From the NCBI GenBank assembly GCA_051362555.1, contig CM120644.1, forward strand, positions 6,208,954 to 6,272,953: a DNA stretch of 64,000 nucleotides, read 5' to 3'. This stretch comes from Lingula anatina (Eukaryota; Animalia; Brachiopoda). Of this stretch, positions 5,576 through 64,000 are shown piece by piece (the first letter of the stretch is position 1; each line of letters begins with the position of its first letter). The notes below the pieces were generated by a model, which was not told the origin of the DNA, made no database searches, and saw only the letters and a program-made list of their open reading frames with translations. Position numbers and translations under genes: made by a program.

Positions 5576-5613
<38 letters not shown>

Positions 5614-7169
5614 AAGGTGTGTAATGAAAGTTATCTGTGTGATACTGCCATATTATAACCCTGTGTGATGGTGACATTTTGTCCTCTCTGTTCCAGGAGT
5701 GTAATGGCTATGAGGTGTGAGTGTGTGCGGAGTCTGTTTAAAATCCAGTACAGCTAAGATGTCATATATGAAATATATTATAACCCTGTGTGATGCTGAT
5801 ATTGTTTTCTCTCTATATTCCAGGAAGAGTGTAATGGCTATGGACAGTGTGTATGTGTGTGTGGAGTCTAGTTATATACCAGTACAGCTAAGATGTTATA
5901 TATGATTTCCCTGTGTGATGCTGATATTTTCTTCTCTCTCTTCCAGGAAGAGTGTAATGGCTATGGACAGTGTGTGTGTGGTGTATGTCAGTGTAGACTG
6001 GAGTCAGGACACTCTGGTCCCACATGTGAGGACTGCCCTGTGAGTATTATTATTAGTAGTAGTAGTAGTAGTAGTCATAGTAGTAGCAGTAGTAGTAGTT
6101 GTGGTGGTATCTCTGCTACATATTAAATTTTTTCAGTGATAGATAATAAGATGGATGCTACACTTAATGTATGATTAAATGTTGTCTTAAAAGTTGTCAT
6201 TTGCAGTCGTCATTCCTTAGGGATGCCTGCTGTACACTGTGTGTCCAAAATATAGCATTCAGTTTCAGAGACTTTATAACTTAAATGTAGAACACTACTT
6301 TAGACATATCGAGGATTATGTGAGGAATGTATATAATATAATATAATATATAACCATCATGTATTGCACTTCTGTAATATTTCAGACACGTCCAGTACTA
6401 TGTGAAGAAACCAAACTATGTGTCCATTGTACAGCATTTCGTTCTGGAGACAATATTTAACATTGTATGACATAAAACTATCATCTATAACTCTACTGGA
6501 CCTTTATATTTCAGACATGTCCAGGGTTATGTGAGGAAATCAAGCTGTACATTCAATGTGCAGCATTCAATTCTGGAGACTATGTAATAACATATAACAT
6601 ATAACTATCATCTGTAACACTTCTATAATATTTCAGACATGTCCAGGACTATGTGAAGAAACCAAGCTGTGTGTCCAGTGTACAGCATTCAATTCTGGAG
6701 AATACTCCCCAGAGTACTGCAAGGCTAACTGTACCAACATAGAGATGGTCCCAGATGTGCAGAGTGAGTGGCTAAGTTGTGATGATTTATTTTCTAACTA
6801 AGGGAGATAACACTGCAGCCAATTGTGAAATAGACTGTGGCCTAGTTTTTTTTATCCGTATAGAGACATTTTGTATCATAGTGATGGTTTCACTTAAATC
6901 AGTGTTAAACTTACTGAACTGTGCAGATAATTATTTTACAACTAGAGAAAAGACAACACTTACAGAAATGAACCACATGTTACATACCCCAAATATTACT
7001 AAGAAATGGAGATTGAAGATAAATGTTTTTTCTCCCCGTATATCTTATTATGAGTATCATGCACATTCACTGAGCTTTATCACCCAGTGGCACACTGCAG
7101 GTGGATAGAGTCCTGTATTGTACAATCAGATGTGGAATAACCAAGTTTTTTTGAGGCATTGGGTGTTTT

Positions 7170-7208
<39 letters not shown>

Positions 7209-8886
7209 TTTTAAAGAGGAATCATATGTAGGTTTGTTTTCTTTCTTCAGAGTACAGTGATGAGAAGATAAAATTCTGCCAGTTCAAAGATGATGATGAC
7301 TGTGAATTTTACTACAACTATGAGTATGTCGGCAACAAGAAGAATATCTACATCAAAGTACAACAAACGAAAGGTTGGTTTTAAAATGGATCTTTGAATT
7401 GGTAGTTGTGAATTATTTTGATGCATGCAGTATTTAAAAGTGACATAGAAAAATAATTTTATTACCTTCAGAATAAATTGATGAAATAAAAAAGCAGAAG
7501 AAAAAATATTTTAAGAAAATAAAAGTATAATGAAAATTTTAAAAAGCAAACAAAATACTTAGAAAAAAATGAGTCATGACTATGTATGATAATTATGTGT
7601 GTGTGTGTGTGTGTGGTAGGATGCCAGTTTATCAAACATAAAGCACACTTTTAAGGTAAATTCTTATTTATAGTCTAACTTCACAACAGACTATCTACTA
7701 TCTTCATTCAATTTTATTTTCAATTTTATTATTAAAAAAAACTCCACCATTGCTCTCACATGAATCTATTTCTATTGGTATTCTATTCTATTAGTAATAG
7801 CAGAATTTGTAAAGACTGCTGTTAAAATACATAGTTCACCTGAGATCTAGTATATCACAGCCACTTATTGTCAACAATGCTGTGAATAGCTTAATTAATT
7901 AATATTATAGCATAATTTGCATTAACACATGTATAATTTAACATACTACATATGTAAACATATATAATTGTATATCCATATACATATTGTGTAAATATTG
8001 TAGTCTAGAGAGCCTACAAATGTATTCACATCATTTAGTGCTCAATAAACTTATTATTATTATTATTTCCAGCCTGCCCTGCCCAGGCCAATGTATTAGC
8101 CATAGTACTGGGAGTGATAGCAGGGATTGTAGCCATAGGGCTGGCTATACTGCTGATCTGGAAGATACTTACCACCATTAACTTCACATTAATCTATTTC
8201 CAGCCTGTCCTGCCCAGGCCAATGTATTAGCCATAGTACTGGGGGTGATAGCAGGGATTGTAGCCATAGGACTGGCTATACTGCTGATCTGGAAGATACT
8301 CACCACCATTAATGACAGGAGAGAGTTCGCCAAGTTTGAGAAGGAGAGAGAGCAGGCGAAATGGGATACTGTAAGTTGAAGAAAATGCTCTTAAAGTAGA
8401 AGAAAACTGAACTGTTTTTCTCCAAAGTTGAATTAAATTTATGGTTTATTTAACAACTGCTAAGCTCAGAGTTATTTTCAGCGTGTTATTTTTGTTATTC
8501 TAGTATTTGAATGCATAACACAGCTGATAAAATTGTTTACTTCAGTTTACAGTGCACAGCTTTTAGTAAGAGATGTTTCACTTGTGATGTATTGAATATT
8601 TATATAATTTTGTAATTTTCAGCAACTTTTTTTTACAGTTTTTGGTTTAATTGGTTCCAATCATGGTGATATAATACATTGAATCAGCTCTGTTAAATAA
8701 ATGACATATATTTAAATATTTCCCTAAATTCAGTTGAATGGTGAATTATGATAATCATTTTATTTTTAGTATTATAATCAGTGGCTTAATTTTTGTAATT
8801 TTTTCCTCTTTTAGGCTGAAAATCCCATCTTCAAACAAGCCACTTCCACATTCAAGAACCCCACATATGAGGGACAGAAAAGCTGA
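193..8886 (+). CDS. Integrin beta subunit (beta-1/betaPS-like), 3' part; 5' exons lie upstream of the window
   Basis: Phase-consistent GT-AG exons: (193-276 or 839-922), 2287-2364, 2788-2973, 3260-3336, 3545-3596, 3985-4143, 4525-4664, 4931-5073, 5459-5568, 5947-6039, 6637-6763, 7251-7373, 8204-8370, 8815-8886. They encode I-like domain motifs ([31 protein letters not shown]; DYPSISQV), Cys-rich I-EGF repeats, a TM helix ([24 protein letters not shown]) and the tail [39 protein letters not shown]. Confidence 0.97.
839..922 (+). CDS. Integrin beta alternative exon B ([28 protein letters not shown])
   Basis: ttacag|...|gttaat, 84 nt, phase 0/0, canonical integrin TD..FH.AGDGK motif. Confidence 0.92.
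2490..2750. repeat. Compound (CT)n/(CA)n microsatellite with a repeated CTGCCAATTT spacer
   Basis: Directly visible; three cycles of (CA)n-ctgccaattt-(CT)n. Confidence 0.95.
5650..5990 (+). repeat. ~125-bp tandem duplication spanning an integrin splice acceptor (copies at 5697, 5824, functional 5947)
   Basis: Repeated 'ccctgtgtgatg(g/c)tga...ttccagg(aag)agtgtaatggctatg'. Confidence 0.9.
6290..6700 (+). repeat. Tandem duplication spanning an integrin splice acceptor (copies at 6304, 6386, 6515, functional 6637)
   Basis: Repeated 'tttcagaca(t/c)gtccag...tatgtga(a/g)gaaa'; the copies at 6386 and 6515 end in stop codons. Confidence 0.9.
8073..8203 (+). other. Upstream duplicate of the integrin transmembrane exon with its own acceptor
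   Basis: tttccag|cctgccctgcccaggcc..., 131 nt upstream of the main copy at 8204; same amino acid sequence up to ILTTIN. Confidence 0.9.
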
Positions 8887-15600: not shown

Positions 15601-18600
15601 ACTTTCACTTGTGGAGGTTTACTAGACTAAGTCATAGTTTAATAAGGTCAAATTGGGAAAGATTAACAGTTCTGAAGGATATGTCGACACAGAAAATTTG
15701 ACTTTGAGACAGTTAAAAAAGAAGAAAGTGAACGTATAATAATAATGTATTTAATACTTAAATATAATAAACATTCAGCATAAGTTTATGGTAATACTAT
15801 GGAACTGTGACATCTTATATTTAATACCTAGCATCAAGTGTATGTGACACATAAAACTTATCTTTCTAGGTCAGTTTGAGGTATTTATGATTAAAGCACA
15901 GCAGTTGAAAGTTTTTCATCACCAATTTATAGGGCACAGTGCATGACATCAGTACATCTTCACAGGTGACACCGGAAACAACAGTATACTCATTATTTCA
16001 TACATGCGGTGAAGGTTTATTCTCTTTAAAACTGAAGGTGGGTTTTTATATTGTTACAGGCATACATTCAATTTGTCTGTTTATAATTTAAACAATTTCC
16101 CCTTAGTCAACAAGTCTAAGTTCTATATTTACCACAAGTAAACTTCTACCGTTTTCATTTCCAATATGAGACAAATACTTGCAACTATGATTTCAATTTC
16201 AGAGTGTGTCTTTAAATAATATGGAAAATACAACCACAAGAAGGCACACATATCTAAACGGGGGAGGGGGAGGGGCATAAATATAACCCAAATTACCCAA
16301 TTTCCAGATAAATCCTGAGGACTTTCTTCTCTTACATACATGCAAGCTTGAAAATAATTCACCTTAATTTTGTTTGAATCCAGCAACTTTGCAGAAGATT
16401 TGAGATTCTTGTCAACCTTCACAAGCTCTGGGTCCAGCACTATCATCTGCCGTCTCTTAGCAGGTAACTGCTGTAACACATCCTTCTTCAGGCGTCTGAA
16501 ATAAAGTAAGTGAAATAAAATTCATATTAAATAAAATAAATGGCATTGTATACAGGTAAATCTAATCTTAAGATTTTAATCACTTAGACTAAGTTGAACA
16601 AGGAAATAAATATCTGGTACTAGGCCACCGTGGTGTTAATATTGGGAATGACACTTAAACAGGCAAATGCTTTCCCCAGAGAGCCAGCCAACCATCATTT
16701 GGATGACCATTGGCCTCAAAAGACAGCCTCTATTTCCAAAGACAGCTTACTAACAAAAAATTAAGTTGTTTGGTTGGTTTGGCTTACTGGGGTTGGACTC
16801 CCTGTAAATTGATGACCATTACAGATTTACATACATGTACTTGTATGTAACTTTGAATCTGTAAGTTTTTTATATGGTAATCAGAGGATTTCAAGCAACT
16901 GTTCATTTTTTGGCAAAAGCATCACAAGGGCTCTAAAATGTATTCAGTTTCCTTTCACATTTTGCTGATACTTCTGTTATATATATATATAATAAATGAT
17001 TTCTTAACATTTAATTAATTATAATATGTCAAGAAGATTTACAAAGGATTGGATCCACTCCTTAGGTCTGTAGCCAAGCAGACGTATGATGACATGGTTG
17101 AACCTGTGGTTTCTGGTTCAAACTTAGAGCGTTTGGTATATCTTTTTTTTTTTTTCAAACATATGAGCACACAACATACTGCAGTTAGTTTATTTTCCCT
17201 AAAGGGTTTCCCACAGACAATCAGAATGGCTAGAATGGAGGATATCCTTCAGAAAAAAACAAGTCCTATAAATGATTTCTTAACACATAAACTGGAAATT
17301 TTCACCCGGCCATGTGACCTAGATCTGTTGCTTCATATTAATTTTGAATATTGAGGTCGGGTGTTTAAAAAACACACTCCTTTTCTCCTAATAACCTGTT
17401 TTATAGCGTTAATAGAGTGGTAAACCTATTTTAACATTGCTAAGTAAACAGACTGATTCTCTACACATTGTTTCCCTAAACTTCAAAAACTGAATTTTTT
17501 TCTGTCCATTTTCCTTTAAGGAAATATATATTCCCTTCCAAATATTAATAATTTGAAAGCTCTTTCATTCTATAACCCTGGCTGTACCTCTGTGAGTTAA
17601 TAGTGTTAGTTGATAGAAAGGTGTAAATTTTGCTTTACTTCAGAAGATATCATGGAACCTCTATGGAAACAGGCCATCCAGAAAAATTACAAGCTTCTGG
17701 TAGATGTCATGAATGCAGATGAACTCTTGCCATACCTGTACCAAAACAATGTCATCAACCACAACCAAATGGAAAAAATCAAGGCTAAAAACAGCCGACC
17801 CGACCAATGTGAGTGTTTGATTGGATATATCCGTAGAACGGACCCAGATTTTGAACCCTATGGGCATTTTGTCAGTGCACTCAGGGAAATAAAACAGAAT
17901 CATTTAGCCAACAGTCTAGAAAGTACATATCAATCATTACAACAGGACTCAAGTGAAGTCACCAACACTGTTCCAACACAAGATGTGACAGACACACTTA
18001 GCTCTGCTCAGTGTAGAACAGATCTGCCATTACAGCAGAACACAGATGACACAATTTTTACCAACAATAACTCTTCCCTTGATAAAGAGCCCCCCTTTAA
18101 TTATGTCACGAAGGTTTACAAAGGATTGGATTCACTCCTTAGGTCCATCACCAAGCAGACGTATGATGACATGGTTGAACCTGTGCTTTCTGGTTCAAAC
18201 TTAGAGCGTTTGGTATATCTTTTTCACTTTGTAGGATACAACATAGCTTGGATCAACATTCTTTTTGTAATGATGCCAGAAGTAATATTCACCATTTTTT
18301 TCACTACAATAGTGCTATGTTGTATTCTAGGTAATTCAACTAAAAACAGCAAAATAATGCCTGTATATGAAGCATTCAAAGACATTGTTTCTCCTTTACA
18401 AAAGGTTTGGGGGACATTATTTGTATCATGTTCATTTGTGGTCAGATATTTTATGTTACCAGCTTTAAAAAATACAGAATTAATCTTTGTTTTTGTACTT
18501 ACAATGCTGCTGATTGTGATACTACTAAGCGTAGAATATGACGTGATGCCCTCAGCTGACATGACAAGATCACCTTTAATTATAATAAATGCACTTGACA

Positions 18601-21600
18601 ATGTATGTTCTCTGATTTTTTTCATTTTCAATACACCTTCGTTTCTTTTAAGCTATCCATTGCTGCACATTGTTTTATGTTCCATTTTGGTATCAGATAT
18701 TAAGACATTTACGTATTCTGGTCAAATGTGATTCTAACAGCATATCCCTAAAAATAATACTGCTACACATTCTTTTAGTATGTGCATTATATATTCACTA
18801 TGTTTTCAAATGATCTTATACTATTACTTTACAGAAATTAGTAAGGTATAGATATAATTTTAATATTTACTTATTTTAATCATTTTGATATCTTTGTTAG
18901 AATACTGATTAATTATCTAGACTATAATGATGACCATGTATATTAATCTTTTAAGATTTCTTGGTTACAGCAATCTGAAGATCAGATGATATAATATAAT
19001 ATTATCCTCTGGTTTAAGTTGGTAGGGCTTTGAAACTTAAAAGTGTGCTCCTGATGAGCCATCTGCAACACAGAACTTGGTCATTTAATTTTTTTTTATA
19101 ATTAAACACCTGGTTAAAGATAATTATTCTATTTTATTAGTCAGCTCCTTATGATGAGTTGAGCATTGTTCAGCATGAATAAGACCATCATTTATAATAT
19201 TGTGGTATATAACATTTAAGTGTCAGTAATAAAATTGGTTGGAATTTTAATGTCAAAGTTCTCTGGTTGTTTTGTTTTCAAACAACTTTAAATAAATATT
19301 ATGCATAATGCACTGAATGTGAACTTCAAGAAGCTGCATTAATTAATTCCTGGACTTGAGTCATTAACAAAAACATTCATTATTTATATATTTATTTATT
19401 TTTCAACATTGTCTGAACAGCATATAAATGTTTATCATCATGAACCAATGAGAGAGAGAGAATAAATGAAGTGGTATATAAGGGTAAAGGCAGACTTATA
19501 AAATGACTTTAGCAACTATGAAACAGAAATATGCCAATCAGTCTTACCTGCAGCAACTAATCAATTTAAAAAATATACTGCAAAACACTGGAATTTTTGT
19601 AGCTTTAATTCCCTTATTTGATATTTTTAATTTCTTGGAAATGTTTAAAAAATGGATTCTTTTATACTTTGTTCTAAAGAATACCCTTCCATATGTCATA
19701 AATCTTTCTTCTCATTAATCACAAATAAAAGTGCAAGAAATGCTAGAACATTATGTTCAATTATTGAAATTATATTACATGTACAAACAAAGAATAAAGA
19801 TACTTCTAAAAGCAGAACTTCCATGTTCAGCATAATGTAGAGTTTGAAACAAAAGTTGTTTGTAGGCAATGCATGCAAAAACACACACACACAAAAAAAA
19901 TAAATAATTCACACGGATGAAAAATTTTTTTTTAATATCACCCCCTATACTCCTGTCCCAGTTAAAATCAATACAATCTGCACCATTGTAATAAATGTTA
20001 CTTCCATTCTCTCCACTAGAGGGCAGCTGGGTGATGATGTCATATTTGTGTAAACATTCTCTAAGGGGGCATTCCCATAGATTTTAGCTTGATCAATCCC
20101 TGTGGGGAATCTCACTAGATTACTGTCAGATAATCCGGCTTAAAAGTCTGTCCCGCCTACTAAAAACTCTAAGGGTGTAATTAACTTCCGTGCGCAGTCG
20201 GCTGACTGCAATTTTACGTGAACCCCCAGGGAGTAAGGTTGATCTAGTAAGATCGATCTAAATCTCTGGGAATGCCCTCTAAGGCTGGTATGAAAATGTG
20301 TGCAGAGCTACAGTAACAAACAGTCACAGAAATTTACTGTGAATATCTAGTGAAAAAATGCTGTGATCCAAGTAGAGGGCAGCACTCCAAACCCAGTGCA
20401 AAACTAACGATAATAAAATTTATCAAATATCCTTACTTTGTCCCCAAAAACTACTGCAACACACACAGCCCTGCATAATTATATGGAGCCCTGGTCAAAT
20501 CTCAATTTCAGTAAATGGGAAATTTCTGTATCCATGTTTTGCGTTACCATAACAGATCAAAGCTTTTTAGGTAAACAATACCCCACAGTACAAAACATTT
20601 CAACATCTGGGTCAAGGCAGTGCCATTATTTACCTGAACTACTGAGTACAAAACTAACAGCAATATAATCTAAACAAAGCCTCTGTTACAAGGTGGCTGA
20701 TATTTTTAGCTAAAAATATACACAAAAAATTCCCAATAAGAAAGATAAGAAAGCTGTTAGCTTTAACTTGGTTGTCTCAGATCAAGCTATCAGAGCTCAG
20801 ATAGACAGCTTGCTGCATTATATGGTAAGTGATTTCTCTGATAATTCAAAGATAAAAAGGGTCCACAGCCAAAATCAACAAAGGCATGCGTAAGGGTACT
20901 TAAGATAGAGTGACACATTTCCTCCTTATTTACTGCCTTACATACATTCTTTTGATAACAGATAAATCTTTGGTGTAATTAACATTTACACACATTTTAA
21001 ATCAGCACAAAGATAGATGCATTATGAAATAATTAGTTTGACCTGGTTTTGTCTGTTTATAACAGGTGTATGATTTTACAGTGGTCAAACTGGTAGATAG
21101 ACAGTAGGATATTAGCAAAGTGACAGTTCTGCTGTTGGGAAAACTGGTGCATGGCTTCACAGTAATGTGCGTGTTGAGGAGATGAAATATATAGTAAAAA
21201 TTTGAGAGCTGCCACACCACAGCTGGTTTGGCAACTGGTCCTTTTTTCCCCACCTTTTGAGGCCTTTGCTTTCATGAGTTAGCTAGCACCACCAGTACAT
21301 ATCAGAATTGTCAACAGGAGTGTTAACGCATGAATTTTTGTGCTAATTCTGGTGGTGATTATTGTATAATTAGTCTTCATATCTTCAGTTTCATCAATGA
21401 CTGTTTAAATTTGATAATAATAATAATAATAATAAAAATAATAATAATAATAATAAATAAATAAATTTCCTTGGCAGGCAATTTAAAATTACTTTTGAAT
21501 CAGGCTCCCACACAATTAACATTATCAACATACCCTAGTATTATTGCTGCTTACACACAATTTTTATGGTTCTTTACCCCAAGTCTTAAAATCATGCAAA

Positions 21601-24600
21601 ATCATCTTAAGTCTCTACTGTATCACTTCTGTTTTCAGGCACATGAAATTTAAAAATAATCAAATAACCAAACTAACACAAATAGTACAAGATAGACAAA
21701 TAAACTACATCTTTTAGGTATTAGTGTTGCGATAACACAATATGGTTGTCAAATTCGAAAACATTACATTTTGGCGAGAAATAAATTCTACTAGCTTATA
21801 TGATTCATACAAAACTTGACGCTTTTAGTTCATTAAAAAATATCTTAAATGTTTTGAATGTTTATTAAGTGTGTACTGACTGAGACAAATTCTCCACCTT
21901 ATTTGTATTATATCAGCTAGATGAGGCAAAGAAAGATATCTAAGTGACTTGTATCATGGCAACAGCAAAAACACACACCGACTCCGACCAGGAGAACTTT
22001 TTCCGCATGAGCATTTTAATTGTAGATTATGCCCTCAAGGTCGTGCAAAATGTTCTCCAGAAAGAGCTAAGAAAAAAGTATCCCAATTTATCTGACACCA
22101 ACACGGGTTTTCTGAATAAGGTGCTTAGTGATAAAACGGTCTGGACCTTACTGCTTGGATTATCACCAAAAATCTTTAATCACCACCAGCGAAACCAACT
22201 GTATCCTGCTGGTAATCCCTCCACATCAGTAACTGTTGGTGATTTAGACCTCACACTGACTGTGCTTTTGCTGAGGAATGTCACTTCGTTGAACCCTCAT
22301 CCTCGGTTGAACGCATGGGACAACCCCTCTGACACAGACCCATCAACAGAGGCCACTATAGGACGAATTAAAAGATATCGAAATACCGTGTATGGCCATG
22401 CAAACAAGGCAGCGATCAGCAATTAAGGACCCTCAGAACTGTTACAAAGACTTTTGTCCAATGGGGACTCAAAATTGTTATGTGTAAACGTATTCACTAA
22501 CTATTTTCAAGAAATTACTTGATTTAATATTTAAATCATCACCAAACAAGGCAAGACACCCAGAAGCCCCCAGGCATTCTCCCCCAATATTGCATATGCA
22601 AAACACTAAAATATTCTGGTTCTTGTAGTGATCACACATGTACAGTATGTAACTTTGAATCTGTGAGTCTTCTGTATGGCCATCAGAGGGTTTCATGCAA
22701 CTGTTCATTTGTTATCAAATTTTTTCAGTCATTTCTGTTTTCAATATTTACCCAAAAATATGAGCACATGAACGAGGCACATGTTCCATATACACTGTAC
22801 CTGTTCAAGGAAGAAATCTACATTCACTCCCTTCCATATATTAAGGCTACTCTTTCACTCCATAGTCCTGCAAGCATATGACCATGTGATTGAACCTCTG
22901 GTTTCAGGCCCCAAAGATTGCAGTTGGACTGCAGTCATTCAACTTAAAAAAGACCCCCCTTAAAAAAATGTTTGATAATTATGAAGTAAAAGAAAGAAAC
23001 CATAACTTGGGAAGCAGCAATTCATTTCACACAAGAATGATAAGATTCTAAATTAACACTAATTTTCAAAATTTGTCTTTTTTTCTCTCCTATTATTAAC
23101 ATATATTGGGTTTCAGAAAAAAAGTAATAAAGGGAATGGATACATATATGGACAGCAATAAATGACAAGCCATGGAATCATGAGAAGTGTTAGTTAGTGA
23201 TGTTCTAAAATTTTGCTTTCCTTCAGAAATCATCATGGCATGTGATCCGTGGAAGCTGGCCATCCAAAAAAACTATCAGCTGCTGGTAGAAAACATGAAT
23301 GTAGATGAACTCTTGCCTTACCTGTACCAGCACCATGTCATCAATGACCATCAACAAGAAAAAATCAGAGTAGAAAAATTCCGTCAAGACCAATGTCATC
23401 TTTTAATTGATTACATTCGTAGAAGTAACCCACAGTGTCACCCCTATAGATATTTTGTCAGTGCACTAAGGAATACAGAACAGAATCATTTAGCTGACAG
23501 TCTGGAAAGAACTTTTGAGTCATTACAACAGGGCTCAAATGAAGCCACCAACACTGTTCTGACACAAGATGTGACAGATGAACCCAGCTCTGCTCATTTT
23601 AAAACAGAACAGCCATTACAACAGAACTCAGTTGCAGAAACCATCAATATTCCTATTCTCCAAACTGATGAAGAAAGGACAGACAGACCTTGCTCTTGTC
23701 AGTATGAGTCAATGCCCAGTCGTGGTTACCATCGCCTGACATGTCACAACTGTTTATCTCTCTATAGCATAGTTCTGTTCATACTGTCCCCAGTCAGATG
23801 TATCTGGCTGAAGTTGAAGAGCATTTATCAAGTACTGAGACCAATCACGCACAATATGTTTATCTATATCAAATATCTTTTTGTTCTGATCCTTTTCAAT
23901 TGTATCAGACCTCCCCTTCACTTCATAGTCCTGAAGGCATATGATCATGTGATTGAACCTCTGGTTTCTGGCTCTAACTCAGAGCGTTTAGTTTATCTCC
24001 TTCATTTGGTAGGGTACAACTTAGCTTACATTTATGTTCTCTTTGTAATGATGCCACCAGCAGCATTTATCATATGGTTCATTACTTTGCTTATAAGTAC
24101 TCTCAGAACATTAAGAAGTACCCATGTACAAATTCCAGTAACATCTGAGACATATATTTTTTTATCAGAAATGTTTGTTGTACGAGTACTTACACTTTTT
24201 TTTTCTGTGGTCACTATCCCTATGCCAAAAAAAAATTACAAGGCATTGGACACTTTCACATTTTCAACATTTCTCATGAATACGCTATTTACATGTACCA
24301 TATGCTTGGCTTTGACCTACCTACCAATATTTTCTTTATCCATAATGAACATATGTTCTCTGGTAAGTTTGGGTGTTGAATATGGGTACTTCTTTAATAA
24401 ATCATTGTTTCTTTCAAGCTATCCACTGCTGCACATTCTGTTATGTTCCATTTTAGTGTCAGGTATTGTAGGCTCACGGCATATTTATGTCTCATTAAGA
24501 CATTTACATTCTATGTTCACATGTGATAACCATAATTTTCACTCACAAAAACTTTTCTTTATCTCTGCAATTTTAATGTTATATATATTAATACTAACAT

Positions 24601-25103
24601 GGGTAAAACTAAGTGATCCTGATAAACTAGAGCCCCTCTTTTATCATTAACCTAAATATAATGATCTTTATACCCACTTGTTTTAATCAGTTTAGTATTC
24701 TTATTATATCACATGCTTTCTTTTCAAGGTAAAGCATGGTAATGCACTTATATAAAGTTAGAACTGGTATGAAACATGTGCAATGCCTTTCTTGTAATAA
24801 AACAAATGCATTTCATTTAACTGGCCTACCACTGATCAATCTTGGAGCAAAGAACTTAAGACTAAAATGTTGATTTAAAAACCAACTTTTAGGCCAAAGT
24901 GTTACGTATGTGTCTGAACCTCTGAGAAATAACGTCCACACCAGTCAATGCATTTCTTGGAACTAACTTTATTATTCACTTTACAAGTCCAGATTAATGC
25001 GCAGTGAGTCGCACCACACAAATAAGTCCTATACATAACATTCCTCCCAACTGAAACGTGAGGTACCACAAATTATGACTGTTACCAACAAAAATATATA
25101 TAA

Positions 25104-25175
<72 letters not shown>

Positions 25176-28100
25176 AATAAATTAATGATCATATCATCAC
25201 ATTGAGTGTACATCATGTTGTCTTCATTACAATGGGGCCTCGTTTAATTGGGCCATTTGAATCTTAAAGTCATAATAACCCTTCGTTTTGGCCAAAAATT
25301 GGATTTTCCTGGCATAAACGGCAATTTTCCCCTACTTACCAATGGTCAACGACCCCATTCCTGCATTCAAAGTTAGTCCAGGTTTTTTTCCGAAACGCTT
25401 GGTTTTTTGTTAAAATTTCTTAAGAAATAGCCTATCGAGCGGGGTTTTCTGATGACCTACTTAAAACCGCGGGAAAAGCAGACAACAACAACACTTTATT
25501 ACAATAAGATAAGATTCATACGATATAATCGTCTTATTGCTCAGAATACATTTATATCCACAACGTGTGCAGTTCTGGGCTATTCGTTATCCGACACACT
25601 GTACAAAAACTCGCAACTTACGTCTGAGGATTGTGCTATATCCTATCCCACCACATGATATTTTGGTCTCGAATGCACGCGAGAAGATTTAAGAAGATTT
25701 AAGAAGATTTAATATAAATTCAACTGACAATCATTTAAAATCACATATCTCTACCAGTACTTAAAACTGAACATAATCATTTAACCATTTAGGTGAGCCT
25801 GCATTACGTCTGGGGTTTCTACGTGTTATCCCCTCGCTTTCTCTATCATTGGTTTGATCAGTACTAGACTGCATAACTACCTGTTCACCTTTAGTTTGTG
25901 AAGACTGATTATCTTGGAAACACAATTCACGATTCTGACCCCCTGAATAACTATTCTTCCTCACCGACTGGGGCACATTTTGAGAGTGTTTCCTTATTTT
26001 GTCCCACGGAATCATGTATTTGATCAACATGCCTGCGCCAAGTACCATTTTCTACCTGTACTCAATATGACACTGGTCCGGTTTTCTCAGTAATAACCCC
26101 AGAACCCACTTTGCATTAGCGCTCGCATGGTAATTGCGAATATCCACATGTCGCCTGGGCTCAAAGTCATGCAGCACACTCGATCTGGGACTTGCCACAT
26201 CCACCTGTTTGTTTCAAATGCGTTGGTCAATGCTAGGTCTAAACGAGACTGTAATTTCCGACCTAAAAACAGGTGTGCGGGAGTTTCACTTGTTGTGGCA
26301 TGGGGTGCATTTCTGTATGCCAGTAACACCTTAGCCAAACTTTTTCTCATCAATTCATTTTCCTTCCAACTAGCCTTCATAGTGGCCTTAAAAGACTGCA
26401 CAAAGCGCTCACCTAACCCATTCGAGCTTGGGTGATACGGTGCACTCTTTACATGTTTAATGCCGTTCACCTTCATAAAATTGGCAAACTCCATGAGGAG
26501 AACTGCGGCCCATAGTCACTGACCAACACATTGGGTACTCCGTGAAAATATCTCGCGCATGACCTCGATTGTCTTTCTGGCTGTGGTCTTTCGCAATGGT
26601 ACCACTTCAGGCCATTTCGAATGCACATCTACATGTACCACAATCAGAAACATTGAGTTCAAAAATGGGCCTGCAAAATCCACGTGTATGTGCTCCCATG
26701 GTCTACAAGGCCATTCCCGAGGGTGAATTGGGGCTGCTGCTGGGGAACGTTTGTGCTCAGGACACCCTTCACACGACTTCGTGATTTTCTCTATATCAGA
26801 ATCAATGTTAGGCCACCACACCAGGCTTCTTGCCAGAGCCTTCATTTTTACAACTCCCACATGCCCAGTATGTAACTCCCTGAGAATATACCCTCTCAGT
26901 TTTGCTGGGATAACGACACGTATACCCTAGAACAGACAACAGCTGTTCATCGACAGCTCTTATCTACGAGTGTAAAATGGATACATTTCTCTGTCTTCTG
27001 GTTTTATGCACGCTTTCCATCTGTGCATTGTGTTTTCACATACAAGTTGCCATTATAGGGTCACGCCCGGTTTCCATCACTAGTAACCGGCAGATTTTCA
27101 ACCTGATGCACGTACAGCAAATCTGTGCTATCATCGTCTGTCTCCAACTTACCACCAGACATTGGTAGCTGAGACAAACAATCAGCGTTCCCATGACTAT
27201 TTGTGTTTCTGTACATAATGTCATAATCATAACCAAACAAAAACAATGCATATCGCTGCATTCTTGCTGCCGTTGTGACTGACACACCTCTTTCTGGATG
27301 AAAAATTGACACCAAAGGTCGATGATCCATCAACAACATGAAATGCCTGCCATAGCGGTACGAATGAAATTTCTTCACACCCCATACTATAGCAAGAGCC
27401 TCACGATCAATTTGAAAATACTTTCTCTTTGTCTGTGTCAAAGACCGTGACACATACGCGATTGGCTTCTTGGAGCCATCGTCCATTACATGAGACAAAA
27501 CGCACCCTAATACGTAGGGTGAAGCATCACAAGCAATCCGAATTGTCTTTTCTCGATCATAATGTGCAAGCACCTCCTCGGAGGTCATCATGTGTTTAAC
27601 CCTTTCAAAAGCATCATTGCATTTGGAGGTCCAACTCCACTCAACTCCCTTTCCAAGCAACTGATGTCACAGGTACAGCACCGCTGACAAATCTGGTAAA
27701 AATCTCACATAGTAATGCACCATGCCTAGAAACAAGCGCAACTGGTATGTTCTAGTAACCCGAAGGGTTTTCAACCTGATGCAAGTACAGCAAATCGGTG
27801 CTGTCACAAAGTTAGGCAGGTGTTTTTTAATTACCAGTTTCTCAAACTCAGCCAACCTCAAAATGGCTAAATTGAAAAAAAAATCAGTAATAAAATTTAA
27901 CCCAATAATATTTTTAACATTTTAAACAATTAGTTTCTGAATCAGTGGTGTACCATGTTAGTAAATTATGTACCACCTGTAACAGAAGACATGCATGTGC
28001 ATCCACCTAGAGTTTTAGTTTTCTGGAAACCAGCCTATTTTATGTTTCAACTTAACTTGCTCATCACATCTGAATATTGTTCTGTAGAATGTTTTATTTT

Positions 28101-31100
28101 TTATCTATTTATCTTTTTTTTGTCTTCTCTTATGTTATGAAGGTAAATTAAAATGCTAAGGTAAATCACTTGTAAATCAAAGAGATTGTATGCTTTTACT
28201 ATGGGTAAATTATCAGATAATTTTGTCCATTTTTTTCACTGGTAAGGCATTACATTTTGATCCTTATGGGCCACACAACACTGTGTCAGCCAAATGATCA
28301 AGGCCCTTTGATTTTATGTATTTAAGTAATCCAAGACCCCATTTCCAGAGATTAGATCGATCTACTTTAGATCGACCCAACTCCCTGGGGGTTCACGCTA
28401 AATAGCTGTCAGCCAAGCGGACACGAAAGTTAATTACCCCCTTACAGCTTGTAGTAGGACATTTAAGCCAGATTATCTGACAGTAATCTAGTGAGACTTC
28501 CCACGGGGATAGATCGATCTAAAAGCTCTGGGAATGTAGCCCAAGAGCAAAATATGTGGTACGCAAAGTTTACTGACCTGATCATTATGGTCTTTTCCAA
28601 AAGAAGTTGGAGCTCAGGCAAATTAGAGGATCCACTGTAGTCCCAGCCAAAATTATTCTGAAAATAAGTACAAAAATTACTCACCAGATCTGAACAAAAC
28701 TGATCAAATACATTTTCCAGGACAATATTAGTATTGTGTTTGGTGAAATATATATTTAACTGGGTCTTGTGTAGGGGTGGCAAAAATGAATGTGTACATT
28801 GAAGTGTTTTTTTTTTTTTTTTTTTTTCATGAGTACGCCATGAGCAAACTCATATAACAGACATTGAACAAGTAAAAGTGGAAAAAAAACTTTTTATAAA
28901 ACTTGTTACATGAGAAATTTGAATCATGGGAGATGTTACCAAATGCCAATAGTAAATGTAATTAGAAGTGTTGTCAATGTAAATATCTGTTTTACAATGC
29001 TTTTTAATTTGTGTGATAAAATTGTTCCGTTTACAACTTTTGCCCTTTTACAATGCTTTTTAATTTGTGTGATAAAGTTGTTCTGTTTACAATTTATGCC
29101 ATTTCACAATGCTCTTTTCATTTGTGTGACAATTTTGTTTTATAATCATGTGTAATTACTAGTATTATACAATTACTATAATTATCAAATATTTATTAAG
29201 GATTTTATATCCTATTCTGGTTCTGAATATATACTATAGACAGGCCCGTAGCCAGCAATTTCAAAAGGGGGGTTCTTTTTCTGAAAAAGTGGACCTTTTT
29301 CCATAAAAACTTTACGTACCTAGATCAAATTTTACCTAGAGTGGACCTTTTCCAAGCAAAAGGGGCAGTTCTTTCGAACCCACCGAACCCCCCCCCCTGG
29401 CTACGGGCCTGATAGAAAATACTACCTAATGTGTCTGCAACCGTTGCACGACAACAAATGTATTGTCCTTTTAAAAGTCTTTATTCCGCTTGATTTTACA
29501 TAAAATAAAGTACTTTCTTCATGTCCGATCACTAGACTAAGTGTATCTCTCTGTGTGCACACTGTACACATGTATCTCCTTGTGTATTTCTCACAAATTA
29601 CGCGCCAAATGTTTATTATAGAATAGGGCCACATGACTCATATAACACAAAAAGGGCGCAACCCCAACTATACATATACATTACATCTCTTTACATACTA
29701 TATTATTTATACTAATATAAGGTACAATGTGATATATTTCATGTTATTATTAATATATAATGGTACATGTAAGATAAGTAAATAATATTCAAGATATCTG
29801 ATTTTTAGTAACCAAAAAGTGTGAAAACAAAAGTTTGTGTACAATGAACAATGAGTGCTGTTTGTATATAGTATTTTCTGTTTCCATGAAATAGTATTTT
29901 ATTCATGTCTAACTATGATCATTATAAGTTACTGTATCCAATAAAGAATGTATTAGCCAAAGTATCACATAAACTTTGCTGTGAACTGTAAACTCTCCAT
30001 GTGAATAAATTTTCAAACTTGAAAATGTTGATTTCAGTGTTTCTATATTCACCATTCAAAAAGGGAAAAGGAGACATCGTCTTCTATAATTATGTTAGTT
30101 CAATGACATGCGTTGGGGAATACTTCAAAATAAGATCATCTTTTTCTTACCATACGTTCCAATATTTACTCACTTGATCACCAGTGCCCAAATTAATCAA
30201 TAGATTTATAATTTTTCATCAGCCATAGACCAAAATTAGGCCATTTGATGGTAGATGTAGAGAATGGAATCTCTGGCATGGGTGATATGATGTTTCAAAT
30301 TGAAAGTTTTATGAACTTTTGTTTCACATCATTCTTATCAGTAATGCATATGATGGAGATAATTTCTAAACAAGCTCTGCTAGATACTGATGATACAAAG
30401 TAAAACTCTTTTCTCTCCACTCCTCAAGTTAGACAAAGAACGAATTTATTTAGTAAACTGAATTGGTATATAATCTGATATAACAAATAACATAACTAAA
30501 AAGCACTAGCATTCTTGAATAGCCAGTACCATGAATATTTCATCAAAATTTCAGACCTTCATAAAAATCTTGTCCTTTAAAAAAGAGACAAACTATCATT
30601 AATAAAAATATATCCTTCTTCTTTGGCAGAAGTGCTTTAATTTGGATATGCAATATAATACAGTCAGACACTTTAACCTACCTGTTTACCATCACAATAT
30701 CGCAGACCAAAGAGGTGGAAGTTGGGGAAGAGTTGAGGTTTGACCAGCCTCAGCTGGGTGTACAGCTCTGCGGGGCGAGATAACGCAGGTGTCCCAGAGA
30801 GGAGAATCACACGTTTGGATACCTGAATAGTGATGAAAAGAGTTTTTATAAGAACATGAGGCAAAGATATACTAACTGTAGTAGATGGTTTAGCAAGATA
30901 CAAAAGTAGCATTCAAATATGCAAGCACATATACACAAATACCTGCACTCATTAATACTAAATATCATATAATATTAGCAACATAAAATCATACAAAAAC
31001 AAATATCTGTATAAATAACATAACATATTACTTAATTGGTAGAAAGGGCATTATAGAAATGATCATTACATTAATTCTACATAAGACTTTTCTAGAGAGC

Positions 31101-34100
31101 AAAAAATAGTGAAAAATAAATAAACCACAAAAATGGGTTCACATTTTATTGTCATTTTTCCCACAGTTTTCGATAGGATTGTCCTTGGCGATAAAGGGAA
31201 TATTTATGAAAAACTGCCCTAGGAGTTTTTACTTTCTCATACCTCATAAAAAATATAATTAACTTGGTTTAATGTGTATACTGTGTCTTAACTGTTTTGT
31301 TCATTTTAAAAATTACCTTCAAAATCAGTTGTGCTGCTTGGCACCTGGCTGTGCGGAAATTTTTCAAAAAGTGACTTTCGTCCTGAAACATATTACAATG
31401 TATAATGGAAATTTCATTAAAGACAAATACCATAATGCCATAAAGTGTTCATCTGGTACATCTATAAATATTTACTACTTGACTAACATCCAACATTTTT
31501 GCAATCAGGGTGCCTTTCCTAATTTTAAAAACATGAACGTGCATTTTTTTAGCTTTAAGACCAGCGTCTCTTTGCAACTGAGTGTTCTACAATTAGTTTT
31601 GAGCCAGATTCTCTATCCTGTAGATTTGGGAAAATGCCCCCAACTTTTATCCACTTTACTTTTATGACATTCTTATTTAATTGTTCATTGGCAAAATTTG
31701 GCCAATAACATAATCAAATAATCATTTTTCTCATCAATCACCCACCAAAATGGCCACCTTGAATCCTACATGCTGTAGATCATTCTTCTTTTTGGTCATC
31801 ATGTCATAGCTGACAATGACAACTTTCCCAGCTGTGACGTCATCTTTACCAGTCACCACCACATTAATGTCATCTGGGTTGAGATCAGGGATCCATCTTT
31901 GTAGTTGCTGCAAAAAATGTAATGATCTACATAACAATATGCAGGGGCGGATCCAAGGATACTCTCTGACAATCTCCCATATTATCTTTGTTGATCCATC
32001 CTCCATTTTTCGACCATCTTCCGACAGAAATAAATAGATACCCGTCAATGTAAACCTGAAAATCTGACTGTCTTTTGGAAGGCCCAGGAGATGGACTAAA
32101 GCTGCCCTGATATGGTTAGAAAAAACTACTAAATTGTTTCTAAAAAGAGTTAACATGCCTTAATATATGGCCCTTTAGTCCTGAGCCCTCTAGTCACATG
32201 ACCTGACTTTTTTATCTAAATGCAAGAGGACAGTGAAATACATGTTTTTACTGTGTTAAAGAAATTACTTGAAAATACAATGCAGTTATGTATGTATACC
32301 AATATGTCTTGTTCACAAAAGGTTTAAAATCAATTCCATACTTTCTGGTATCATTATTTGTCTCTTATCAGACTGTAATATAACACAAGTAATTATGTAT
32401 GTGGCCAACTCCTACAGTATTCTTTAAAAGGCACTCCTATTAAAGTTTTACCTCGGACCACGCAAATCTGACTGAAGATGGCACCACAACCAAAAGGGGC
32501 CACTCCTTCCTGTAGTAACAAGCCACACATATGGATTGTATTGTTTTCCCAAGACCCATGTCATCTGCTATTATAACACGTCCTTCCCGTGAGATGGCAA
32601 AACTGAAATTAAAATCATTCAAAGTATTTTAAATAACTCACTAGACATGTAGTTGGAACACTTAATAAATAAATACAAATGCAGGAAATTATTGATATTA
32701 TTCTGTACAAGCATATCTAAATAATAATTGATAATATTCTAATAATAAATATCAAATATATACATATCATCAACGTACAGTCATATAATTGTTAAACCAT
32801 AAGGTATTCCCAAGACACAGTCAGCAAATGACTGCAAAATTAATGATCAGATTAAGAATTTCCATCTCATTCACTTGTAGGCCCCATCAAATGAAGTTAT
32901 CCTAAAAACAGAACTGAAATTCCTAAAAATCCTCACTTCACTCCATCTCTCTGGAAAGGCATGAGAGAGCCAGTCAGTGTGTCAGGCACGCGTGTCAAGT
33001 CAGCGTTTGGCACGTGGTTGTCTGTGATCTTCCCTTGGCAGGCAGGTTTAAAAGCCTGGAGAAGAGGTTGGGGCAGACCCTCCAGTTCTATTACTCCTTG
33101 CTGCATCAGAACTCTGGCCCTTCGCACTATAGGGAAAGAAATCAGATTGATAACAGGGGCGGATCCAGGGCTATTTACTGACTGTCTTCCAAATTATCTT
33201 TGTTGATTCATCCTCTAATTTTGACCGTCTTCCAACAGTAAAAATTAGATAACCGTCAATGTAAACTTGAAAATCTGACCATCTTCCGGAAGACCCAGAA
33301 GACGGCCTAAATCCGCCCCTGGATAATCTATCTAAGATATACAATATTCATTACCTTTGCCAGCGAAGCTATGATCAGTGTTTATTAGTTTATGTCTTGA
33401 TTTTAGAGGAAATACAGTATATCAAAATATCCTTTAACAAACTTTGATAAAATGTGCAGGCATGTGCAGTCATTCAGTTGGGAAAAATTATAACTACAAT
33501 TTCAAACAAGGCAGCAAAGTTGTCAAATGTACAGACAACAAGGCAGCAAAGCTGTCAAATGTACAGACAAAAAGCAGACAATAACAATGCACAAAACAGG
33601 CTACTGTCAATTCTGATGCAAAAGTACATTATGCTTAACTGCAAATTCAACATCAAATTTTAATTATGCTCAACAGGTAATACCAATGTAAGTGAAATGT
33701 GTAACAAGCGTAAGGATTCAGGCACATGGGAGTTTAAGTTCACACTTTGAAAAAGCCAGAATGAGAAAAATGAAAATTTCACATAAAACTGCCTAAATTC
33801 AATAATAAATGATAACCCATTTGAGCTGGCTTTCTAATTTGAACTGCATGCCAATCCTACAAATCGTACTTGTAAGTTGAAAATAATAATAAGTAACATA
33901 GTTTTCTTTTCATAATGTTTGTAGTAGCAGTGCAAAAAGATTTTTGTCAATTTTGATGTAACATTACATAATAAATTACAGAATAATTATCACCAATTTT
34001 TGATTATTGACTACAAATAGCATGGACATGTAGAAAATTTGATTACCATTTGGCTTCATGTCCATGGGAGCTTCGAGTCCCACAATGAATATGCCAACAT

Positions 34101-37100
34101 GATAAAAATGAATATTTCACTAAAATGTATAACTTCCAGAAAAAGAAGCCAATTAGACTGCTTTTCCAACTCAGGCTGCATTTTAGTCCTTTGTTTCTTT
34201 TTTGAAAGTTTGACAATCATAAGTAACATGGTTTTCCCATAATGGTCATCATGGCAGCAGCACCCAAAATTGTGTTTTCTTCTATTTTAATGCAATATTA
34301 CATAATGCTTAACAGCATAATGACCATCAGTTTTTAATAATAAAAGATCCGTATCGTGGATTTTCAGAAAATGTGATTAGCATGGGTCTTCAAGCTCGTG
34401 GAGGTTCTAAGTCACACCTTGAAAATGCCAATATGTGAAAAATTAAATTTTCACAAAAGACAGATTAACTGCCAAAAAAATTTACCAAATAGTCTGCATT
34501 GCCCACTGAAGCTTTATTTAAGTCCCATGTTTCTTCCTGTAAGTTTGAGAACAGTAAGTGACATGGTTTTCCTTAAATGGTCATCATGGGAGCAGTGTCC
34601 AAAATAGGGGTGTCTTCAAATTTTGATGCAATATTACATAATGTTTAACAGGATAATTACCATCAATTTTTAATAATAAAATATCAGTATCATGGATATT
34701 CAGAAAATGTTCCTAGCAAAGGTCTTTAGGCCAAAGGAACTTCAAAGTCACACCTTGAAAATGCCAAAATGTAGACAAGACAGCACTGTCCTGAAATGTG
34801 TTTTTATCCATTTTTAACAATTTTTTAACATATAACAAAATTAACAATTTACTGCCATTTATATATGATCAACTAAGAAAATTGATGAGATGGGAAAAAT
34901 ATCAATAGAACAGTGTTTAATGTCCAATTTCCTCCATTCTGAGTTTCTGAACATAGTGAATGAATGAATCTGACAAACTGCAATGATATGAGTTTATTTC
35001 CATTTTTGAAACACTATTATACAATACATGATAACAAGTTTACCATCATTTTTACATAATCAACTAACAATGTTGTAAAGATGCAGGAAATGTCAAACAA
35101 ACACTTTTACGAATCTTATTAGTTAAATAATGAGACTGTTAACATGCCTAAGAATTGAATCTGAGGAAATGTGAAAAAACAGCATAACTTATAAAATAAT
35201 GCCCCGATTATGCTGATTTTCGAACTTGACCTACGTTTTAGTAAGATTGATTACTCCTGTGAGTTTCATGACAACAGGTCTATCGGTTTTTTCTTGAAAT
35301 GTGTTAACAGTGTTGCACATATGCTGAAAAGTGAAAAAAACAGCATAACTACTAAAATAGTGGCCCGATCATGCCGATTTTCGAACTTGACCTGCGTTTT
35401 AGTAAGATTGATTACCCCTATGAGTTTCATGACAACAGGCCTATCGGTTTTTATTGAAATGTGTTAACGATGTTGCATATATGCTGAAAAGTGAAAAAAA
35501 AAAGCATAACTTCTACAATAATGGCCCGATCATGCTTATTTTCGAACTTGACCTGCGTTTTATGAATACTCATCAGCTCTGTAAATATAAAGCCAAAAAG
35601 TAAAACTGTCTTCCACTTATGGTGTTAATGCTGAAAGTGCACGGCAACAGTGACGGCGACATGATCAACGATGGCGACGACAGGCGCAGGTGATGGCAAT
35701 ATGTACATACATATCTGTGTCTGTACATAATAAAATATATGTATCATGGATTTTCAGAAAATGTGACTAGCATGGGTCTTCAAGCCCGTGGAGGTTCTAA
35801 GTCACACCTTGAAAATGCCAATATGTGAAAAATTAAATTTTCACAAAAAACTGATTAACTGCCAAAAAAATTTACCAAATAGTCTGCATTGCCCACTGAA
35901 GCTTTATTTCAGTCCCATGTTTCTTCCTGTAAGTTTGAGAACAGTAAGTGACATGGTTTTCCTTAAATGGTCATCATGGGAGCAGTGTCCAAAATAGGGG
36001 TGTCTTCAAATTTTGATGCACTATTACATAATGTTTAACAGGATAATTACCATCAATTTTTAATAATAAAATATTAGTATCATGGATATTCAGAAAATGT
36101 TCCTAGCAAAGGTCTTCAGGCCAAAGGAACTTCAAAGTCACACCTTGAAAATGCCAAAATGTAGACAAGACAGCACTGTCCTGAAATGTTTTTTTTTCCA
36201 TTTTTAACAATTTTTTAACATATAACAAAATTAACAATTTACTGCCATTTATATATGATCAACTAAGAAAATTGATGAGATGGGAAAAATATCAATAGAA
36301 CAGTGTTTAATGTCCAATTTCCTCCATTCTGAGTTTCTGAACATAGTGAATGAATGAATCTGACAAACTGCAATGATATGAGTTTATTTCCATTTTTGAA
36401 ACTCTATTATACAATACATGATAACAAGTTTACCATCATTCTTACATAATCAACTAACAATGTTGTAAAGATGCAGGAAATGTCAAACAAACACTTTTAC
36501 GAATCTTATTAGTTAAATAATGAGACTGTTAACATGCCTAAGAATTGAATCTGAGGAAATGTGAAAAAACAGCATAACTTATAAAATAATGCCCCGATTA
36601 TGCTGATTTTCGAACTTGACCTGCATTTTAGTAAGATTAATTACTCCTGTGAGTTTCATGACAACAGGTCTATCGGTTTTCCTTGAAATGTGTTAACAGT
36701 GTTGCACATATGCTGAAAAGTGAAAAAAACAGCATAACTACTAAAATAGTGGCCCGATCATGCCGATTTTCGAACTTGATCTGCGTTTTAGTAAGATTAA
36801 TTACTCCTGTGAGTTTCGTGACAACAGGCCTATCGGTTTTCCTTGAAATGTGTTAACAGTGTTGCATATATGCTAAAAAGTGAAAACACAGCATAAATAC
36901 TACAATAATTGCCCAAACATGCTGATTTTCGAACTTGACCTGCGTTTTATGAATATTCATCAGCTCTGTAAATATAAAGCCAAAAAGTAAAACTGTCTTC
37001 CACTTATCGTGTTAACGATGAAAGTGCACGGCGACGGCGACGGCGACAGGGACGGCGACGGCGACGACAGACGCAGGTGATGGCAATATGTACAGACACA

Positions 37101-63700: not shown

Positions 63701-64000
63701 ACGTCCGCGCCGAAAGCGCCATCTATTTCCGTTGTGTCGAGAAGTTAATGTGTTGTGTTGCGATTTTCTTTGGTGTTGTGTCGAAAAGTTAAATGTGTCG
63801 TGTTGAAATTGTGTTGTGTGTTGAGTGATTTTGTTGTGTGTTGTGGCACTTATACGCTTCCATAGAGGCCGTCTTCTGGGTCTTTCAGATTTTAAAGTTC
63901 ACATTGATGGGTATCTGTTTTTTCTGTTGGAAGACCATCAAAAATGTAGGATGGATCAACAAAGATAATTTGGAATACTGTCAGAAAATATCTCTGGATC
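60761..64000. mobile_element. hAT-like MITE (caggggcggat family) split by a later insertion
   Basis: 60761-60778 plus 63871-64000 rejoin to match the reverse complement of 33154-33321. Confidence 0.8.
60779..63864. mobile_element. 3.1-kb non-autonomous foldback DNA transposon, IS3EU-like
   Basis: Termini TATGGAAGCG...CGCTTCCATA, near-perfect TIR of about 250 bp (imperfectly to about 390 bp), GAGGCC 6-bp TSD; interior made of inverted and tandem subrepeats; no transposase ORF. Confidence 0.85.

Follow-up and report, generated by a model that had tools for sequence, protein, structure and literature searches.

Does a cluster of CARD and HEPN open reading frames (ORFs), running antisense inside an intron of a housekeeping gene, hold three separate genes or the exons of one gene and its duplicate? 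The question arises in a 64,000-nucleotide (nt) stretch of the brachiopod Lingula anatina (contig CM120644.1, positions 6,208,954 to 6,272,953, forward strand; the whole stretch is hereafter the window), where an initial annotation had described three + strand ORFs within a SMARCAL1-like intron as a module of intact genes, two of them joining a CARD to a multipass membrane region (CARD-TM1 and CARD-TM2, TM for transmembrane, hereafter CT1 and CT2) and the third encoding a HEPN ribonuclease (RNase). We recovered the three ORFs at their annotated coordinates, in an intron of 12,082 nt with GT-AG ends on the - strand, and read the tandem array, with a confidence somewhat above even, as two CARD-hydrophobic exons and a HEPN exon that most likely make up a HEPN-CARD-membrane gene and a duplicate of it, with parts of the array broken here. 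The proposal of three intact genes is not supported, as the HEPN ORF lacks its helix 4 and CT1 is frameshifted; the HEPN truncation, the CT1 frameshift near its end, two relics of related exons and the pol region of a long terminal repeat (LTR) retrotransposon had been missed. The features of the array are:

16496..28577, - strand: host intron of a SMARCAL1-like SNF2 helicase gene, 12,082 nt, GT..AG
16830..17147, + strand: relic of a CARD-TM paralogue, a CNFES motif and then a piece 93% identical to 18102-18224
17652..18731, + strand: CT1 ORF, 359 amino acids (aa), with a CARD at aa 7-91, an acidic linker and about 5 hydrophobic segments
20744..20826, + strand: exon-like piece with a GTAAGT donor at its end, 57% identical to aa 642-678 of the L. 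anatina gene model P0001 (XP_013415833); possibly a leader or internal exon, its use putative
21956..22426, + strand: DZIP3-type HEPN exon, 3'-truncated, 156 aa, acceptor AG at 21919-20
22633..22909, + strand: second relic of a CARD-TM paralogue, with a CTVCNFES...H...CNC motif; 22854-22909 is 91% identical to 23917-23972
23235..24650, + strand: CT2 ORF, 471 aa, with a CARD at aa 9-92, a linker, a Cys/His motif at aa 153-173 and about 8 hydrophobic segments

As had been noted, each ORF opens in the context atcATGG (3 of 3) shortly after a splice acceptor, which lies 8 nt before the ATG in CT1 (AG 17642-43) and CT2 (AG 23225-26) and 35 nt before it in HEPN. One relic stands upstream of CT1 and the other upstream of CT2, an AATAAA lies beyond the CT2 ORF at 24796, and the chance of equally long stop-free frames at the local composition is 2e-11 and 1e-13.

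A truncated HEPN exon and its relatives

The DZIP3-like assignment of the HEPN ORF holds, given its strong profile match (HEPN_DZIP3, PF18738; E 4e-31, 108 bits against a cut-off of 27) and its R-x4-6-H motif, which reads R142-N-T-V-Y-G-H148 (R-x5-H) and is present in 8 of 10 Lingula HEPN relatives. The ORF ends only 8 residues on, at aa 156, and covers profile positions 4-102 of 144, compared with 4-144 in the HEPN of P0001. Since helix 3 ends in the motif, ahead of helix 4 (as passages of PMC3710099 describe it), an ORF that stops at 156 is missing helix 4, leaving the four-helix HEPN core incomplete. The predicted structure of P0001 aa 1-252 places a helix at 156-173 with a predicted local distance difference test score (pLDDT) above 90, and the best structural matches of this model, Csm6 and AbiF (Z 6.5, modest), reach aa 176-189. 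Measured against P0001, the window HEPN is missing about 96 further codons and a splice donor. A contig of X4, a third individual, begins to align only at 22425, with 222 non-matching letters before it, as would be expected from a deletion in the window at that point; the X4 contig that follows continues into the CT2 exon. The window HEPN is thus probably non-functional, and RNase activity is itself a prediction.

Evidence on what the HEPN exon once belonged to comes from P0001, whose HEPN is 96% identical to that of the window and its sister in the tree (100/95). P0001 has no stop at the point where the window HEPN ends; its full HEPN exon (aa 1-252) is followed by E-I-I-M-A-C-D-P-W, the start of CT2. 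The CT2 acceptor in the window is phase 1, reading AG and then AA ATC ATC ATG, in the same frame as the P0001 junction. Together, the P0001 junction and this acceptor suggest that an intact haplotype would most simply yield a HEPN-CARD-TM protein, and that the window HEPN more likely represents the first coding exon of the CT2 gene, broken in this haplotype, than an RNase gene of its own. The expectation that HEPN would lie beside CARD-TM sequence elsewhere was borne out in that the two are adjacent in P0001. The membrane region of P0001 is a mosaic, CT2-like at aa 268-387 and CT1-like at aa 468-587, and a CARD matching that of CT2 is absent from it. P0001 lies on a 268,607-nt contig, and P0002, an annotated stand-alone L. 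anatina CARD-TM protein 90% identical to CT1, on one of 62,080 nt.

Longer relatives of the HEPN numbered 13 among 903 candidates, 10 from Lingula and 3 from corals. In the 10 Lingula proteins the HEPN stands N-terminal to CARD-NACHT (2), a RIG-I-like helicase (1), an IIGP GTPase (1), a DEAD helicase (1), the membrane region (1) or short tails (4), so that on these gene models HEPN is a shuffled module in Lingula. P0003 shares its HEPN part with P0001 up to ..QTTK-E and then runs into CARD-NACHT; both NACHT proteins, P0003 and P0004, match the window through HEPN only. The models with RIG-I-like helicase, interferon-inducible (IIGP) GTPase and DEAD helicase fusions are P0005, P0007 and P0010. 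In P0004 and P0006 a short hydrophobic N-terminal segment precedes HEPN, which suggests a second route to a membrane-anchored HEPN in Lingula.

CARDs, membrane region and variation between individuals

The annotation of CT1 and CT2 as carrying CARDs, that is death folds, was upheld. Both pass Pfam (PF00619; E 8.6e-13 for CT1 and 3.7e-14 for CT2, 48.6 and 52.9 bits against a cut-off of 23.9), and CT2 aa 1-100 were predicted as a six-helix death fold (pLDDT 72-90) that Foldseek superposed on the Apaf-1 CARD with a TM(target) score of 0.88 and a root-mean-square deviation of 1.6, the caspase-9 CARD also being among the structural matches. The predicted structure covers the CT2 CARD, that of CT1 being assigned by its profile score.

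Behind the CARDs, a Kyte-Doolittle scan revealed about 5 hydrophobic segments in CT1 and about 8 in CT2, which mark a likely membrane region. A motif in its core, EP.VSGSN.ERLVYL.H.VGYN.A.I..LFVMMP, is kept across paralogues. Searching 1.84 billion representatives with the membrane region returned only 2 matches, the Lingula proteins P0001 and P0002; a CT2 query returned the same 2 proteins among 5,470 candidates, both from L. anatina; Pfam, NCBIfam, PADLOC and Atlas held no usable match to the membrane region; and Foldseek against PDB and viral models yielded for CT2 nothing beyond CARD matches and low-confidence hits of no meaning. Within the reach of these searches, the membrane region appears to be a Lingula orphan. 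Origin of the hydrophobic ORFs by chance from T-rich DNA was rejected, the stop-free probabilities of the membrane parts being 9e-9 and 4e-7 and their ratio of non-synonymous to synonymous rates (dN/dS) 0.43. Profile search found no NACHT domain in the three window ORFs or P0001. The stretch between CARD and membrane region carries a possibly zinc-binding Cys/His motif, C-x1-2-C-x-[YF]-E-S...H...C-x1-2-C, found in the window at 23691-23753, in the relics at 16830 and 22633 and at the P0001 C-terminus, and absent from CT1; this distribution points to a third CARD-TM paralogue type.

Comparing individuals, we found the array to vary between haplotypes. CT1 in the window has 29 nt fewer after 18698 than a contig of X1, another individual, and the frame that takes over past this position reads [11 protein letters not shown]...ILLHILLV, resembling the CT2 and P0001 tails; the window CT1 is therefore a frameshifted allele whose last hydrophobic helix is out of frame. 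CT2, with 471 stop-free codons, is the only one of the three that looks intact in this haplotype, and its allele is real, since X1 contigs are identical to the window over 22690-24037 (1,348 nt) and 24402-24978 (577 nt), with many differences elsewhere. In X4 an in-frame 240-nt deletion takes out the CT2 CARD, accompanied by insertions of 6 and 33 nt, all three indels being frame-preserving. Between CT1 and CT2, dN/dS is 0.37 over the CARD (89 codons; bootstrap 0.19-0.69) and 0.43 over the alignable membrane core and tail (85 codons; 0.21-0.81), both below 1 in more than 99% of 1,000 bootstraps, which shows purifying selection on the CARD and membrane core between the paralogues, a past rather than a present constraint. 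Elsewhere it reaches 0.85 in the linker, 0.68 in the middle membrane segment (poorly aligned or weakly constrained) and 1.0 in the 16830-17147 relic (41 codons). That the region is fast-evolving and immune-like, as first proposed, agrees with these results: the locus is real, lineage-specific and haplotype-variable, with fast-rearranging domains, and is probably of immune type.

Weighing the explanations

Several observations count against a HEPN-CARD-membrane gene. The HEPN deletion is known from one individual, that of the window, and may reflect an assembly error; P0001 is an automatic prediction that tacks on one more CARD gene and may be a chimera; 4 of the 10 Lingula HEPN proteins stand alone; the CT1, HEPN and CT2 exons each have their own well-placed ATG; and the membrane part of CT2 (AlphaFold, 4-row alignment) was modelled at pLDDT below 50 over aa 103-442, so the topology is taken from hydropathy only. 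The RNA evidence, drawn from 6 of the 9 runs listed at 6-30% of each run's reads, also counts against it in part. No HEPN-to-CT2 junction occurred among the RNA reads and contigs listed. In the stranded run X12, + strand depth was 0.09-0.23 on CT2 and nil on HEPN, and the reads on CT1 were all of the SMARCAL1 strand; in stranded X15 the + strand gave 0.51 and 0.18 on HEPN and nothing on CT1 or CT2. Polyadenylated X19 reads speak for the single gene in that they lie thinly over much the greater part of the CT2 exon and are absent from 22800-23159, and against it in that those on the CT2 CARD differ at 8 or more sites, hence come from a diverged allele or paralogue.

The SMARCAL1 exon bins, for comparison, ran at 2.8-8.3 in X12, and in both X12 and X15 they carried - strand RNA. 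Unstranded X18 gave 0.8-2.1 over CT2 and 0-0.3 over CT1, with some non-coding bins at 1.2-1.6; X20 was lower, and X16 gave 0 reads on 21480-25050, which does not count as a test. At the HEPN acceptor 9 + 6 RNA reads break, their upstream piece containing stops and, with up to 3 mismatches allowed over 21 letters, having no counterpart in the window, so these reads are probably paralogue-derived, and the RNA reads on HEPN are largely paralogous. The CARD-TM/HEPN family is weakly transcribed, transcription of the exact locus being putative.

Three separate single-coding-exon genes, each with its own non-coding leader, the HEPN RNase being a free protein that joins a membrane CARD platform in trans, would account for the atcATGG placed right after each acceptor, for P0002 and the stand-alone HEPN proteins, for acceptor-breaking reads that look like a spliced leader exon, and for the lack of a HEPN exon upstream of CT1 in the window. 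We nonetheless hold this arrangement to be unlikely, if well worth keeping in mind: the window HEPN has no helix 4, its closest relative reads on where the window ORF stops and, in its gene model, continues in frame into CT2, a HEPN on its own brings no CARD with which to join the platform, and the leader-like piece, unmatched in the window, probably belongs to paralogues. Alternatively, the cluster could be a set of once-functional paralogues, now mostly pseudogenes drifting in a transposon-collecting intron. Damage does mark every haplotype seen (HEPN truncation and 29-nt frameshift in the window, loss of the CARD from X4 and P0001, P0002 ending early), and two relics (dN/dS 1.0), an LTR remnant and a high-copy repeat share the intron, with RNA very low. 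General decay is all the same improbable to us, given a CT2 stop-free over 471 codons and identical in X1 over both stretches, frame-preserving indels in X4 and purifying selection between paralogues, even if that constraint is past.

The multipass region might itself be the effector, a pore or channel opened by CARD or HEPN oligomerisation for membrane-permeabilising cell death. The segments far exceed what an anchor needs, the core motif is conserved across paralogues, and the membrane region persists in the X4 haplotype that has no CARD. We rate a pore as highly improbable, however, there being no likeness to any pore or channel family in the Pfam, NCBIfam, PADLOC and Atlas searches; the low-confidence membrane model (pLDDT below 50) drew structural matches with TM scores below 0.4, and the number of helices varies between paralogues. 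A bolder and improbable extension would make the HEPN-CARD-multipass protein a new, costly death or RNase effector held in balanced polymorphism, with a CARD-bearing, RNase-less allele in the window, RNase-bearing alleles that have lost the CARD in frame in X4 and P0001, and heterozygotes in which the two forms assemble by way of the membrane domain they share; that CARD and HEPN are lost reciprocally would then be read from two haplotypes only.

Returning to a HEPN-CARD-membrane gene with a duplicate, we propose that the HEPN exon, before its truncation, was spliced in frame onto the CT2 exon to give one protein that would serve as a membrane-anchored innate-immune signalling component and RNase effector. 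Its CARD would be cytosolic and N-terminal to hydrophobic helices anchoring it in the membrane. MAVS consists of a CARD plus a single C-terminal transmembrane anchor and signals by CARD-driven clustering at the membrane, and IRE1 and RNase L are activated by oligomerisation. By a MAVS-like logic, CARD-bearing sensors or caspases upstream would cluster the protein through CARD-CARD contacts; with an intact, spliced-on HEPN exon, the clustered proteins would bring their HEPN domains into pairs and start cutting RNA, much as IRE1 and RNase L do. In the window haplotype, translation of CT2 could begin at its own ATG and yield an adaptor or decoy that has no HEPN. The likeness to MAVS extends to an N-terminal CARD, a low-complexity linker and a C-terminal hydrophobic region, and the MAVS CARD is among the fold matches (rank 19); CT1 and CT2 differ in having about 5 and about 8 segments where MAVS has one anchor, and the CARD is structurally nearer those of Apaf-1 and caspase-9; the likeness carries no claim of orthology.

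A HEPN RNase tied to a membrane is also found in IRE1 and RNase L (KEN-type HEPN) and in C6orf70-type proteins (passages of PMC3710099), which belong to other HEPN families; the Lingula protein has no kinase, its clustering module would be the CARD, and the fusion is seen in an automatic gene model only. The DZIP3/hRUL138-like invertebrate HEPN proteins (PF18738), including the NLR-like HEPN-NACHT proteins, differ in their partner, here an orphan multipass region instead of NACHT or leucine-rich repeats, and the window copy differs further in having no helix 4 and in its nesting in a housekeeping intron; with no NACHT in the window ORFs or P0001, this is not a NOD-like receptor (NLR). In the published literature, HEPN joined to CARD, NACHT and DEATH, with expansion in particular lineages, is tabulated (PMC3710099), pearl oyster is described as having HEPN and NACHT arrays that vary by haplotype (PMC9646362), HEPN-NLRs are reported (PMC8662601), as are membrane-bound NLRs in cnidarians (PMC3879445) and dispensable death-domain genes in lancelets (PMC12373286), and brachiopods are credited with HEPN, RLR (RIG-I-like receptor) and death-fold fusions (PMC8195603). 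N-terminal domain swapping links the array to the lophotrochozoan RLRs, L. anatina included, in which such domains change by exon gain and loss (passages of PMC8998645), and to domain-grafted death-domain proteins (passages of PMC8195603); it differs from the RLR set in that the word HEPN is missing from PMC8998645 and a CARD-multipass protein from all of these passages.

The annotators' remark that no equivalent is known therefore stands for the membrane region, for which none was found, and falls for HEPN grafted onto CARD or NACHT in invertebrates, which was already described (passages of PMC3710099 and PMC9646362); the orphan membrane partner would be what is new. A literature search limited to main texts gave no account of a CARD-multipass family or of SMARCAL1-nested genes, and the 2018 Lingula immune-system paper (Gerdol et al.) might cover them. 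The locus is best taken as a further case of the exon shuffling known from invertebrate immune genes, and part of it is broken in the window haplotype. It would add to invertebrate innate immunity an architecture in which an orphan multipass region carries a CARD and, probably, a HEPN RNase, and it displays in one place a likely route of assembly and dismantling through exons of compatible phase, unequal exchange and deletions of whole domains that vary from one individual to the next. The membrane region is its most interesting part and a tractable target for a new membrane effector fold; interest is limited by the partly broken window copy and by the nesting in SMARCAL1, for which no functional meaning was found.

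The host intron and neighbouring features

On the - strand the intron runs from a GT donor at 28577 to an AG acceptor ending at 16496, and its flanking exons translate to [10 protein letters not shown]...KTIMI and [11 protein letters not shown].... The host-gene exons pass Pfam for Helicase_C (E 2e-7); the HARP start scores under the cut-off (E 0.0017) because the exon cuts the domain in half, and its best PDB match is a SMARCAL1 chain, 4O66 (weak, E 0.16). No full-length homologue of the host protein was among the 7,982 candidates scored, and from these partial exons the gene is likely SMARCAL1, whose intron is most likely a merely tolerant site for array growth and decay. The same intron holds a decayed LTR-retrotransposon pol at 26090-27666, within 25700-27900 on the - strand (reverse transcriptase-RNase H, integrase zinc finger and integrase core, with frameshifts), and inverted copies of a short element (20070-20283 and 28340-28536, 81%), missing at 20065-20285 in one X1 contig. 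Delivery of the array by a transposon through this inverted pair is unsupported, the pair being a very high-copy repeat.

At 33590-39260, inside a SMARCAL1 intron, lie large direct repeats with units of about 1.4-2.1 kb, 88-99% identical, with inverted kin near 58800-60150. Convergent with SMARCAL1, integrin beta-like exons lie at about 4900-8330 (+ strand), with an EGF repeat match and a transmembrane/tail exon duplicated at 8064-8312. A THAP domain ORF occupies 46366-46746 (- strand; Pfam E 1e-12), and at 60778-63865 a 254-nt inverted repeat, 98% complementary with its arms 2,580 nt apart, is likely a non-autonomous DNA transposon.

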